A DNA stretch of 64,000 nt from Iphione sp. A-MEVVRFRX5. Lineage: Eukaryota. Numbering within the stretch: position 1 is the stretch's first letter; the number at the start of each line of letters is the position of its first letter. A model generated the notes under the pieces. That model was not told the origin of the DNA, did no database searches, and worked only from the letters and a program-made list of their open reading frames with translations. Position numbers and translations under genes: made by a program. The DNA lies in NCBI GenBank assembly GCA_976226885.1, contig OZ320313.1, forward strand, positions 171,926,001 to 171,990,000. The letters are read 5' to 3'. This document shows, one piece after another, positions 5,572-27,678 of this stretch.

Positions 5572-5577
5572 TGTATC
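5572..5577 (+). repeat. Left 6-bp target-site duplication (TGTATC) of the Polinton
   Basis: Identical TGTATC at 27673-27678; a 6-bp TSD is characteristic of Polinton integrases. Confidence 0.95.
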
Positions 5578-5632
5578 AGTAGTAATTAGAGAGGAGAAAT
5601 CCGTATGTTGGGTATGTAAATGTAAGTAAACA
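5578..5632 (+). repeat. Left terminal inverted repeat (55 bp)
   Basis: AGTAGTAATTAGAGAGGAGAAATCCGTATGTTGGGTATGTAAATGTAAGTAAACA matches the reverse complement of 27618-27672 with 2 mismatches. Confidence 0.95.
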
Positions 5633-6610
5633 AGTAGACATGTCAGGACAGGTCTACGCATGTTGACTATGTAAATGTAAGTAAACAAGTAAATATTTCA
5701 CAACCTGCATAATTCTTGCTTTCACCACTGCTGCCACCTAGCGTTTCTAATACTTCTCTAACTTTCCGCTATTGTGTTTTGGCGCTACTGATCAATTTGA
5801 ACGCGTGAAGCAAGGGCACCTTGAATATATCCTTTTAGAACATATCTTGGAAAGAATGAATTATTTTAAAGTCAGGAAGTAATTACCTTTACATAGTACG
5901 TTAGTTTAGAATCGATTTTAAATCTTTATAATACCTATAGTGGGAGCATTCAAATTCCTGATTAAAACACCTTTTTTGCACTATAATAAATTAAATGGAG
6001 TTACCGTGAAGTAGCTTTACTTCCGAGAATACTGAGAATAAACCCTCAAAAAAAATTTTTGGAAGGAGTCCTTCTTCTAGGACTCTTTAAAAGAACCCTT
6101 AGGGGTTCTAACAATGAAAATAAAGAATAAGCACTTCCATTCTGTAACCTACGCTCCCGTATCTATACCTAGGAGTGGGGGGCAGGTATCACTTGAGTTC
6201 GTGCCTGGATTAGGGTAAGAGAGGTTAGAATGAGAGAAAGTAGGTAGACGAATGGGTAGGATCTGTGTAGAGAGGGTAAACAATTTCGTCAAAAGTTTTC
6301 TTTATTCATGAAATGCAATACCATTATTTGCCTTCTTGGTTTACGCTATATACACTGGTATGATCATTTCTTAATGGTGAAATGCGAACCTGGAAAAGAG
6401 GTGACCGATTATCCCAGTTTAGTGACCAAGTATTCTAGTTTAGCATATATGGGGAGGGATTACTGAAGCTACCCGGTGCTCTTTCCTTGTCTGGATACAG
6501 CGGGATACAAGCTTTCATATTGTACTCATCGTGGTTTTAAACAACTTGTGTTTAATGTTAGCATTTTGAAGTTTAAGACTTATAGTGGATAACTGTTTTT
6601 TTAAAAAAAA

Positions 6611-9600
6611 ATGGCCTCTAATCATGGATTTATCGATTGGAATCTAGACGCTCTTGAGCTGTATGTTAACACCTTTACAGACAAGGATAGACTTTTATCA
6701 TGGGCAAATATGGAAGGATTGGGTAATCATCATCTTATAACATCAAGAATTCAAGAGTTGGAGAGTGGTGAGGTAAGTAACATGATAATTTATTAAATTA
6801 ACTGAAGTATGTGATAAACTATCTATTTTAATTATAAAATTTAGTGATATATATAATAAGTTATTTACTTGGATTAATTTTTAGATAATACAGCCGGGAG
6901 ATGAATGGTGTTTTTCAACTGAAGACTGGAAGCAACTATTATCAACTTTTGAATCTCTGTCCGATCTGGATGAATTTATTACATCTAATTCTCTGCAATC
7001 TGACAAACACGTTCATGCACGTAGGAAACAATTGATGGCTCAAGGAGAGGAAACTGTAAGTTATTTTATTTAACAGTAGTCCCATAAACACCTCCTGGTT
7101 TTATTGAATTTGAATGCTTTAGAACAGTTATTACTAAAAGTGGTGGAAAGATTTTTAATTAAATGATGGTGCAATTGTTTTGACTCAGTTAATGCGATGA
7201 GATGGATTTTTTTTTTTATATTACAGAATATGAAGACCAATATTTTTACCTGTAGAACATGTCAGCGCTCTTTTAGCTCTAGACGGGATTTGTATTTGCA
7301 TCAAGGCTTGCAACATGGTGGGGCAGATAATTTAAAGGATGAACCTTGGTCTAGCCAACCTCCTTGGATTAAAGGAAATAGGGAAGATGAGTCTTTAAAG
7401 GATGTATATAATGCCAATCGACGGCATATTCTAGCTCGTGATGAGGAAGGATCCATCACATCACTATTTAATTATCCCACAGAAGATTTACAAAGTGGAA
7501 CTCAAGAATTAGTAGATGATTTTGAAGATGTTTATTCTAATCAAAGGGAATCATTTAAAGTTAATATTGCTTTCGGTCTTATTCTTCAACATGCTGACAC
7601 TGATGAATACCGTTATTTTATCCCATATCATAATGTTACCTTATTTCCATCTCCTCTCTCTGTTTCAAAAATGGTAGATCTTCAATCAGTGAATGAGCGA
7701 TTGAAGAATTTTGATTTGGAATTGTATTTTAAACAGTTGAGACCAGATACTAAATGGAGGTTGATTATGGTAACAAATGTGGTATTTTATGTTACTAAGA
7801 CAGGGTTCCCTTTAGGAAAAGGGCTCCTCCCTAATTTTATTAAGAGAAAACATAGTATTGAAGGATTGGAACATCCTCCAAATAATAGATCGCATTATTA
7901 TAATGATTCTTTATGTATATTTCGTTGTTTAGCACTTCAAATGGGTCAGAAGCATAATATATCTGCTGCTGTTAATCATTATTATCATCAATGGCGAACA
8001 TTTTTAAAAGACTCAATATCTAAAAATCCAAAAACGTACGAAGGTGTGACTTTTCAAGAGTTGCCCGATTTTGAACGTTGTTTTAATGTGTCTCTATATA
8101 TTTATGAACTTAAACCTGATGACAGTGCTACTTTATTTTATAAACCCTCAACGAGATTTACCTCTATCATGTATCTTAATATCTATGAAAACCATTTATC
8201 ATTCATTTATAACTTTAATAAGTATGCCTCAAAATATCAATGTGAGTCTTGTCAAAAACATTTTAAATCTCATTTTAATTTTAAGAGACACATAAGATCC
8301 TGTCAGAATAGAACAAAACATAAATTTCCAGGAGGATTTTTCAGTCCTCCTCAAACTATTTTTGAACAGTTGAAGGAGATGGATATTCATGTTCCAGAAG
8401 ATAGTCAAGTTTTTCCTTGGTTTGCGGTGTTCGATTTTGAAGCTATATTAGAAAAAATAGAAGAACAAACATCAGAAAAGTTATCTTGGAACCAGAAACA
8501 TAGTCCAATTTCTGTGTCTATTTGTAGCAATGTTCCAGGTTTTGAAAATCCTCAATGTATCATCGATTCAGATCTGGGATCAATTTTAACTCAAATGTTT
8601 GATTATTTGGAATTTATAAGAGTAGCTATGGTTGAATATTCAAGTGAAAAATGGGGTTATGTCATGGAGGAACTGGAAAATATGATAAAGAAGTGGACTC
8701 CTAATGATGATTATGAGGAGGAGGGGGAGGGAGAGGAAAAGACAGACGATGATGACGGAGAGGAAGAAAGGGGATTAGACGGAGAGGAGTGGGGTAACCG
8801 TATTATGCGTACACAATTGAAAATTTTGAAAGAGAAAGTCGAGAATTATATTAACCAGTTACCTGTAATAGGATTTAACTCAGCTAGATATGATATAAAT
8901 TTAATAAAATCTAAAATATTTTCATATTTCGAGTCTCATAAAAATAAGAGTTATATAATTAAGAGAAATAACGCATATCTTAGTCTTGCCAATGATAGGT
9001 TTAAATTTATAGATATTGTTCAATTTTTAGCTCCTGGGTGTTCTTATACTAATTTTCTTAAAGCTTTTGGTGTAGAGGAGAGGAAGGGTTTTTTCCCTTA
9101 TGAGTATTTAGATTCATATGAACGATTGAAGGAAACATCGTTACCTCCTCATGAATGTTTTTTCTCTACATTGAAAAATTGCAACATTTCAAATGATGAT
9201 TATGATTATATAAAGAAAGTTTGGGAGGAGTGTAACATGGAGACTCTTAAAGATCTTTTAATTTGGTACAATAATAAAGATGTAGAACCTTTTGTATTAG
9301 CAATACAACGATTGCAGTCATTTTATTATGAAAGAAAAATAGATGTTTTTAAGATAGCAATATCTGTACCTGGTATTGCACGTCGTCTTTTATTTCAATC
9401 ATGTAAAGACACAAATTCTTATTTTCAAATTTTTGGTTCTGAGGATGAAGATCTTTATCGTACTTTTAAAGCAAATATCGTAGGGGGACCTTCTATTATA
9501 TTTAAACGCTTTCATAAAGTTGGAGAGACCCTAATAAGGGGAGGGAAACCATGTCAAAAAATTGTAGGTTTTGATGCAAATGCATTATACCTTTGGGCTA

Positions 9601-27022: not shown

Positions 27023-27336
27023 TTTCGTCTTTTAACTTTTTTCCTTTTCTTTTGCTTAGGTTTAACTTTTTTTCTCTTTTTACCCTTCAAAGGTTTGCGT
27101 CTGGTCGTGTTTCTCCGTGTCCTTCTGTTTCGTGACTGAGATAACCTAGCTTTGTGAGATCTATTTAACTGTGTTTTCAATCGTTGTTTGGCTCTCTCTA
27201 CAACACCTTGTTGAGGTGAAATTAATTTTATGTCACTTCCTCTTCCTTTTTGCAATACATAGAAGTCTCTACCTTCTCGCTGATCTGGGAGTTGCTTCCA
27301 GGTCTCTGCATTTGGTAAATAAGGAACAAAACTCAT
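27019..27336 (-). CDS. Arg/Lys-rich putative core (DNA-condensing) protein
   Basis: MSFVPY..W..FYVLQKGRGS..ISPQQ.VVERAK..LK followed by an R/K-rich tail; stop overlaps the capsid ATG. Confidence 0.7.
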   Translation of the reverse strand: MSFVPYLPNAETWKQLPDQREGRDFYVLQKGRGSDIKLISPQQGVVERAKQRLKTQLNRSHKARLSQSRNRRTRRNTTRRKPLKGKKRKKVKPKQKKRKKVKRRK

Positions 27337-27617
27337 CCTGCTGTCTCTTCCTATTGAGTCTGACAACAAATGAATCAATATATCGGATTCGATTCTTTTT
27401 AAAGTATAAAACCCAAAAATTCCTACGTCTGTTAAAAATGGACCAATGATCCTAAATCCATTTCTAAACACGGTTCCCTTTCTAGCGGAACATAAACACC
27501 CTCTAGGAATGTATGTGAGAGGGATGTTTACTTACATATTTACCCATAACCGCTTAGTACAAGAGGGCAGATAGGTCAGTTTACACAAGCTGGTTCACAT
27601 ACCCAACGCGCGTTTAA

Positions 27618-27672
27618 TGTTTACCTACATTTACATACCCAACATACGGATTTCTGCTCTCTAATTACTACT
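27618..27672 (-). repeat. Right terminal inverted repeat (55 bp)
   Basis: Reverse complement of 5578-5632 with 2 mismatches; ends ACTACT. Confidence 0.95.
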
Positions 27673-27678
27673 TGTATC
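27673..27678 (+). repeat. Right 6-bp target-site duplication (TGTATC)
   Basis: Identical to 5572-5577. Confidence 0.95.

Follow-up and report, generated by a model that had tools for sequence, protein, structure and literature searches.

A recently integrated Polinton in Iphione sp. with a protein-primed polymerase gene predicted to be divided into eight exons

The stretch considered here, the window, comprises 64,000 nt of contig OZ320313.1 from Iphione sp. A-MEVVRFRX5 (assembly GCA_976226885.1, positions 171,926,001 to 171,990,000 of the forward strand) and contains a Polinton/Maverick element of 22,095 bp (5,578-27,672), which is AT-rich, with a GC content of about 30-35% against 40-45% in the flanks. 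In line with the initial annotation of the window, the element is bounded by a perfect target-site duplication and by terminal inverted repeats (TIRs) that are identical at 53 of 55 positions, with two mismatches, and it encodes its integrase, ATPase and protease in single open reading frames (ORFs) with the catalytic motifs in place; the accessory block, announced as about 8 kb, comes to about 9 kb (16.1-25.2 kb). The same does not hold for the polymerase, which had been listed among the intact ORFs and which we find in eight pieces separated by seven GT-AG gaps, with a frame break in its NADAR-like tail. A 6-bp target duplication is found at the window copy and at all five of its sisters, the TIRs carry the (AGT)2 end motif, the polymerase is of the protein-primed family B type (collinear with PF03175 relatives, with Exo and Pol motifs), the integrase is retrovirus-like, the ATPase A32-like and the protease adenain-like, and the major capsid protein has a predicted double-jelly-roll fold. 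By these structural tests the element is a true young Polinton, with a minor capsid protein that is probable; its seven introns and the polymerase frame break set it apart from an 'intact' Maverick as defined in print (eight conserved intronless ORFs; Barreat and Katzourakis, 2021, PMC8097293). The features of the element are collected in Table 1.

Table 1. Features of the Polinton, in window coordinates, with the basis of each assignment.
Feature	Position	Strand	Basis
Left target-site duplication, TGTATC	5572..5577	.	sequence
Left TIR, 55 bp, begins AGTAGT	5578..5632	+	end alignment, sister comparison
Polymerase exon A, 54 codons, starts at ATG	6611..6772	+	homologous exon in 9/9 divergent copies
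Intron A, 112 nt, GT-AG	6773..6884	+	GT-AG at expected place in 8/9 divergent copies
Polymerase exon B, 57 codons	6885..7055	+	alignment to relatives and copies
Intron B, 171 nt, GT-AG	7056..7226	+	donor-like sequence after exon B in 9/9 divergent copies (exact ends unmapped there)
Polymerase long exon: zinc fingers, Exo I-III, Pol A motif	7227..9821	+	motifs, alignment
Intron 1, 128 nt, GT-AG	9822..9949	+	sequence, divergent copies
Polymerase exon, Vsr-like insert by position	9950..10252	+	weak Vsr match at equivalent region of relative P0011
Intron 2, 103 nt, GT-AG	10253..10355	+	exactly missing from three divergent copies
Polymerase exon, 51 codons	10356..10508	+	alignment
Intron 3, 101 nt, GT-AG	10509..10609	+	houses RNA unit in another subfamily
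Polymerase exon, ends inside motif B	10610..10841	+	alignment, motif
Intron 4, 164 nt, GT-AG, interrupts motif B	10842..11005	+	houses accessory gene in 80% family
Polymerase exon, ends inside motif C	11006..11305	+	alignment, motif
Intron 5, 147 nt, GT-AG, interrupts catalytic DTD	11306..11452	+	sequence, motif
Final polymerase exon; NADAR-like domain at its C-terminal end	11453..12491	+	frame break near 12,220-12,245 only in window copy
Packaging ATPase (A32-like)	12580..13203	+	Pox_A32 E 3e-6, Walker A/B
BIR-domain (inhibitor-of-apoptosis-like) protein	13205..13615	+	PF00653 E 9e-18
Conserved 105-aa protein, PM by position	13747..14064	+	gene order in PMC8097293
Conserved 164-aa protein, PZ by position	14061..14555	+	conservation, gene order
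Retrovirus-like integrase with chromodomain	14540..15658	+	rve E 5e-11, chromodomain E 4e-8, D/D/E motifs
Probable minor capsid (penton) protein	15681..16058	+	position, conservation, Atlas lead
Accessory protein A, 308 aa, paralogue of B and D	16271..17197	+	conservation, comparison
Predicted Pol III-type RNA gene, ~440 nt	17778..18218	+	A-/B-box-like motifs, 5'-3' end pairing, T run
Accessory protein B, 200 aa	18375..18977	+	conservation, comparison
Accessory protein C, 92 aa	19320..19598	+	conservation
Accessory protein D, 230 aa	19747..20439	+	conservation, comparison
Type I membrane protein: signal peptide, mini-leucine-rich repeat (mini-LRR), Ser/Thr stalk, membrane helix, Tyr-rich tail	20792..21721	-	sequence features, profile
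Second mini-LRR membrane protein; stop codon overlaps donor-like site	22526..23200	+	sequence features
Probable short last exon of second membrane protein	24242..24314	+	83% amino-acid identity, same acceptor phase in 80% family
Adenain-like cysteine protease	25234..25650	-	His, Asp, Gln/Cys motifs; profile matches African swine fever virus (ASFV) S273R protease, E 4e-5
Double-jelly-roll major capsid protein, 443 aa	25691..27022	-	predicted fold
Basic 105-aa protein, PW by position, possibly core-protein-like	27019..27336	-	gene order
Right TIR	27618..27672	-	end alignment
Right target-site duplication, TGTATC	27673..27678	.	sequence

The longest ORF in the polymerase region reaches at most 896 aa, compared with 1,400-1,500 aa in intron-free relatives (those with names mostly from bivalves), and these relatives align to the window polymerase as a series of pieces in different frames. 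All seven gaps between the pieces start with GT, end with AG after a pyrimidine run and preserve the frame, and motifs B (KLI-G/NSAYG) and C (MDT/DSAY) are complete only across introns 4 and 5. Among the 120 of 183 matches examined at the junctions, no residue is added beyond the split codon at any of the five downstream ones in relatives such as P0007, P0014, P0015, P0019 and P0020. When scored with a splice matrix that was derived from 40 introns of other copies, six of the seven acceptors rank within the top 15 of 1,342 plus-strand AG sites. In all, introns make up 16% of the gene.

The junctions recur in nine divergent copies elsewhere in this genome, which are 54-80% identical to the window copy in the long exon and were chosen from 40 scored integrase-region matches. 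For introns 1-5, 40 of the 45 junctions in these copies are GT-AG at the same codon, three are exact absences, all of intron 2, and two have damaged donors, while intron lengths vary. The five near-identical sisters differ at 12 indel sites in the gene, of which 10 fall within its 926 intron bases and two within its 4,952 exon bases (p 5e-7), and the exons after the gaps have dN/dS values of 0.05-0.19 against the 80% family, at a dS near saturation. In a tree of 41 polymerase rows, for which loci with a readable junction were selected manually and one of the near-duplicates L083/L095 as well as loci not covering the junctions were omitted, the 11 rows of this genome form a single clade (99/100). 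No intron-free row is among these 11, which come from the examined part of the 40 scored copies. The three copies that lack intron 2 form a nested clade (95/82) within them and are therefore explained by one precise loss. Precise intron loss usually indicates a spliced RNA template. An origin of the introns as introners was considered and rejected, as introns at different positions share only short, weak similarities, none of them family-like.

Some polymerase introns also carry other genes. In the 80% family, a homologue of accessory protein A lies on the opposite strand inside intron 4, which there measures 894 nt (L029:5,619-6,338), and in three copies of another subfamily (L151/L152, L139/L140 and L149/L150) the RNA unit described below sits on the same strand inside an intron 3 of 565-680 nt. 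The introns with nested genes retain their GT-AG ends.

Relatives of the long exon were found neither in viral_contigs nor in a first metagenome scan; a second scan yielded 60 polymerase loci. At junction 1, five of these have an intron at the same codon, 16 are contiguous, three have a slightly displaced intron and 36 are unreadable; the corresponding counts at junction 4 are four, 26, three and 27, and at junctions 2 and 3 no intron is seen among 19 and 27 readable loci, respectively. The codon of intron 1 is used in distant polymerases (30-42% identity; L050, L054, L061, L062 and L069) and that of intron 4 in L052 and L081-L083, while L059, L066 and L089 have introns a few bases off, and all such loci are scattered among intron-free relatives. 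This pattern would fit either introns of ancient origin that were lost in places or introns gained repeatedly at the same motifs.

The last exon ends in the NADAR-like domain, whose two halves around the frame break match the Pfam family with E-values of 0.03 and 3e-5 in the window copy, while the whole domain scores above the cut-off in all seven divergent copies tested. Programmed frameshifting was rejected as an explanation, since the break is shared by none of the five sisters and none of the nine divergent copies. A Vsr domain, as in mollusc members of the pPolB2 group, is hinted at by a weak match in P0011 (E 0.005).

A second unusual feature lies in the non-coding DNA between accessory proteins A and B, which is 76-77% identical between copies that are 69-70% identical in the integrase region. 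Here we predict an RNA gene of RNA polymerase III (Pol III) type, which is likely, judging from its sequence, to yield an abundant structured RNA. An A box, a B box (both judged against a consensus) and a T-run terminator, as in type 2 Pol III genes, are present in all 14 aligned units. The terminal stem is 96-100% paired over the same 14 rows from which its structure was derived, and the named structure 97%, compared with 30-44% when slid. Two of the 27 pairs vary in both partners, each time within a single subfamily, which lends the stem modest support. By profile search, the unit is whole or partial in 10 of 13 copy sets, at differing places, and it is absent from the fetched stretches of the other three. 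No Rfam family matches it, the adenovirus virus-associated (VA) RNA model remaining unmatched at E-values up to 1 or 5. On the other side, so few pairs vary in this way, the whole RNA folds no better than shuffles (z -0.77), and related units, some 320-590 nt long and ending alike, form tandem arrays beyond Polintons (56 matches from 40 scored of 990 candidates), so that the unit may be a passenger.

Indeed, a role as decoy or small-RNA precursor and one as passenger appear about equally likely. In its strict form, the latter would make the unit a host tRNA-derived repeat, SINE-like or a multicopy Pol III gene, that hitch-hikes without a role; this is a serious contender, if somewhat short of even, for which the tandem units outside Polintons, some of them near Gypsy-like sequence, speak together with the variable position among families and the three sets that lack the unit, but which sits poorly with its presence in most sets, with a conservation beyond that of adjacent coding DNA and with a T run after the terminal stem rather than a LINE-like tail. 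The tandem arrays (L134:161-751, L136, L137/L138, L145/L146) cluster on C4, C5, C6, C15 and C17, in places adjoin Gypsy-like pol or env-like frames, have no Rfam match and possibly constitute an undescribed host RNA or repeat family. Four putative CTCF-like sites (5,744, 16,082, 17,654 and 17,716; matches to a pattern) are seen in the window copy, two of them just upstream of the RNA unit, and similar ones lie near the RNA unit or the left end in some other copies.

Of the two capsid proteins named in the initial annotation, the major one is well founded. Its model, built from an 81-row alignment, reaches a predicted local distance difference test (pLDDT) score of 92, compared with 32 for single-sequence folding, and has the Sputnik capsid as best structural match (E 4e-16), with iridovirus and Paramecium bursaria chlorella virus 1 (PBCV-1) capsids also matched (range E 4e-16 to 1e-14); at the sequence level, the capsid profile matched nothing in the PDB. 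The call for the minor capsid protein is weaker: it is conserved in all nine aligned copies, and its Atlas lead of 0.93 to the Sputnik V18/19 cluster comes with a low recognition score. In the window family the PW-capsid-protease block (within the 16,060-27,400 region) has an inverted arrangement at the right end, pointing inwards, while in every divergent copy examined integrase, minor capsid, PW, major capsid and protease all run in one direction; the integrase-to-A order of the window is shared by two 95% fragments and one 88% copy.

The accessory block encodes mainly proteins that are under purifying selection: A, B, D, the 92-aa protein and both membrane proteins are present in most divergent copies, with dN/dS values of 0.09-0.21. 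The A/B/D family received no Pfam or Atlas assignment, a match to UPF0339 being weak (E 0.025). Both membrane proteins combine a signal peptide, a cysteine-capped LRR domain of two repeats, a Ser/Thr stalk and a membrane helix. Relatives of the mini-LRR domain escaped a word-based search, but a profile of it matches Toll-like receptor 3 (E 5e-4), and the family with mini-LRR, stalk and membrane helix has 55 profile matches (P0212-P0266) and no family name. One mini-LRR cluster lies on contigs like those of the closest polymerase and capsid relatives, which hints that the family is Polinton-borne elsewhere too. In the second membrane protein (23,197-24,314), the stop codon overlaps a phase-2 donor in four of eight copies, and in other families its counterparts have basic tails with a YNLR-like motif, possibly akin to the chromatin-binding motif of foamy viruses. 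The splice matrix places strong acceptors ahead of just three of 16 genes, those for the ATPase, for protein B and for the second membrane protein, so that an adenovirus-like common leader for all genes, which we considered, is unsupported.

Whether these genes still serve an extracellular phase bears on what kind of element this is. A transposon that keeps its capsid genes and spreads only within cells, without infectious particles, would be consistent with the fact that Maverick particles are so far unobserved, according to the accessible text of Barreat and Katzourakis (2021, PMC8097293), with the introns, which suggest long residence in host nuclei, and with the single clade formed by all 11 rows from this genome. 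Nevertheless, we consider it the less probable option, given dN/dS values of 0.06-0.13 for the major capsid protein and 0.14 for the protease, and given conserved surface proteins and a BIR protein that would suit a cell-to-cell phase.

Copy number, divergence and the dN/dS of core genes, proposed as checks in the initial annotation, were estimated for this genome. As lower bounds, the integrase region is found in six copies at ≥99% identity (the window copy included), two at 95%, one at 80% and about 30 at 67-70%. As all five sisters have their own 6-bp target duplication, they are separate insertions. All five also share the two TIR mismatches of the window copy, which are therefore inherited; the recent insertion stands, but the TIR identity adduced for it is no clock. 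The four youngest copies instead provide one: over 21,588 shared sites they have 22 (window), 30, 14 and 24 private substitutions, form a star in which each is 0.07-0.14% from the common source (0.10% for the window copy), and no private substitution is common to any two of the three sisters. If 1-5 substitutions per 10^9 sites and year are assumed, the age comes to roughly 0.1-1.4 million years.

Compared with two copies that differ by about 1%, core genes have dN/dS values of 0.20 and 0.27, and compared with the 80% family one of 0.11, so that purifying selection has acted between subfamilies. Within the youngest copies the picture differs. The private coding changes of the window copy are 14 non-silent and two silent, the former including three each in polymerase and integrase and one each in ATPase, protease and major capsid protein, and those of the four youngest copies together are 38 non-silent to 12 silent, where about 3.9 to 1 is expected under neutrality. 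Private changes of inserted copies thus look neutral, and we conclude that the lineage was working until recently and that copies decay once inserted. In three of the five sisters a core gene is interrupted by a stop. The sister copy on C22 (L011/L131) contains about 3.9 kb of inserted DNA at the site that corresponds to window position 25,100.

The competence for replication and virion formation that had been proposed for this copy is accordingly a fair description of the lineage, but unproven for the window copy. That the latter is complete in itself, able alone to excise, replicate and form particles, seems unlikely to us: all genes but the polymerase tail are open with their motifs in place, the splice sites are canonical and the private divergence is small, and the frame break, which follows the catalytic motifs and coincides with a homopolymer, may do no harm or reflect a sequencing error; yet it truncates a domain kept in all five sisters and all nine divergent copies, the non-silent private changes reach several core enzymes, and 10 of the 22 private changes lie at former CpG sites, which suggests methylated, silent DNA.

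Taken together, the sequence very probably represents a recently integrated Polinton whose protein-primed polymerase is encoded in eight exons that are likely joined by the host spliceosome, so that the replicase would likely be made only in a splicing-competent nucleus. Several observations weigh against parts of this reading: the acceptor of intron A is weak in the splice matrix (score 3.0), exons A and B are only faintly similar to intron-free relatives (best E 0.03), the tree is limited by two long-branch rows and 11 open forks, and the frame break, sitting in a homopolymer run, could be an assembly error. That the gaps are instead damage after insertion, with a polymerase pseudogene in all copies that is moved in trans by an intron-free helper, would follow the scoring of intron-like gaps as degradation in the accessible parts of PMC8097293 and the contiguity of most metagenome relatives at these junctions, but is highly improbable in view of GT-AG ends at the same codons in copies 54-80% identical, of the purifying selection on the downstream exons and of the lack of intron-free copies among the 11 rows of this genome in the tree.

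For the recently integrated, exon-split Polinton we propose the following cycle. Host RNA polymerase II would transcribe the left arm of an active source copy and the spliceosome take out the seven introns, upon which the polymerase would prime on a terminal protein at the AGTAGT ends and the integrase insert new copies, producing 6-bp duplications; ATPase, protease and capsid proteins would possibly package new copies into particles. Inserted copies would then decay neutrally, as the window copy may have begun to do with its NADAR frame break and 14 private amino-acid changes. Introns may provide neutral space in a compact genome and thereby room for cargo, such as the accessory gene in intron 4 and the RNA unit in intron 3. 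The 440-nt Pol III transcript, if VA RNA-like, could act as a double-stranded decoy or as a small-RNA precursor, and the NADAR domain could clear host marks from replicating DNA. More tentatively, these parts may add up to an adenovirus-like nuclear programme of a lineage that still spreads as a virus. Its polymerase mRNA would be spliced and include small leader exons, a VA-like RNA made by Pol III would counter the RNA defences of the host, surface proteins and an inhibitor of apoptosis would take part, the NADAR domain fused to the polymerase would remove ADP-ribose from the element's DNA, and the introns would serve as cargo bays by way of which accessory genes move; on balance we regard this fuller picture as possible rather than probable.

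ARAGORN found no tRNA in the window, and an Rfam hit to TLS-PK3 at 6,060-6,175 is below threshold (32 bits where 80 are needed) and was discarded as chance hairpins. The host flank at 28,700-64,000 contains many short tandem arrays (units of 19, 37, 41, 98, 125 and 168 nt), telomere-like repeats near 29,900 and one run of N (62,958-63,197).

Compared with the vertebrate Mavericks described by Barreat and Katzourakis (2021, PMC8097293; the following refers to its accessible text), the element agrees in its 6-bp target duplication, (AGT)2 ends, size and TIR length (reported ranges 12.7-24.6 kb and 46-1,447 bp) and in having eight core genes in similar order. It differs in its seven polymerase introns, as intact vertebrate elements have intronless ORFs by definition and 'no introns were observed', and further in the NADAR tail and in the PW-capsid-protease block, inverted away from integrase and minor capsid; that text makes no mention of a Pol III-type RNA unit. 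Nematode Mavericks (Widen et al., bioRxiv 10.1101/2022.07.12.499685) are likewise full-length, with capsid genes, an accessory region and introns within the element, but, as far as the available text goes, their core genes are intronless and introns mark host-derived cargo, whereas here they interrupt the replicase itself. A possible link to mollusc pPolB2 Polintons (Jeong et al., bioRxiv 10.1101/2023.08.22.554363) is suggested by the named relatives of the window polymerase, largely bivalve ones, and by the Vsr-like insert hinted at in P0011; the portion of that paper at hand does not mention spliceosomal introns.

Spliceosomal introns within full-length Polinton-like elements are known from dinoflagellate eupolintoviruses with introners (PMC12166617), where, from the part of that article available, they are young intron-generating transposons, whereas those of the window are old, diverged in sequence and fixed at conserved codons. 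Cryptophyte Polinton-like viruses carry tRNAs and group I introns, and a Polinton survey (10.1101/2025.04.19.649669) leaves introns out of account, both as judged from excerpts. With adenovirus VA RNA, as presented in the sections of PMC7589676 at our disposal, the predicted RNA unit shares internal A and B boxes, an A box inside the terminal stem formed by both ends, a T-run terminator and a carrier that is a linear virus with a protein-primed polymerase; it is longer (about 440 versus about 160 nt), differs in sequence and has related units outside the element. In the freely accessible literature that was searched, we found no paper describing spliceosomal introns at conserved positions in the polymerase of an animal Polinton, nor one on a Polinton Pol III RNA. 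Of most interest are features that the initial annotation lacks: a replicase split by introns in a lineage that was active until recently, the exact loss of one intron, intron-nested genes and a candidate VA-like RNA.

A single chromosome-scale genome thus displays the full series of conserved introns, one precise loss and intron-nested genes, and the predicted exon junctions, together with one predicted abundant small RNA, offer a cheap route to test Polinton expression. Since seven introns divide the replicase of a lineage that transposed recently and shows purifying selection, screens based on ORFs would file active, intron-split Polintons as dead. Replication of such elements would depend on nuclear splicing through their introns, unlike that of the intron-free elements in print.

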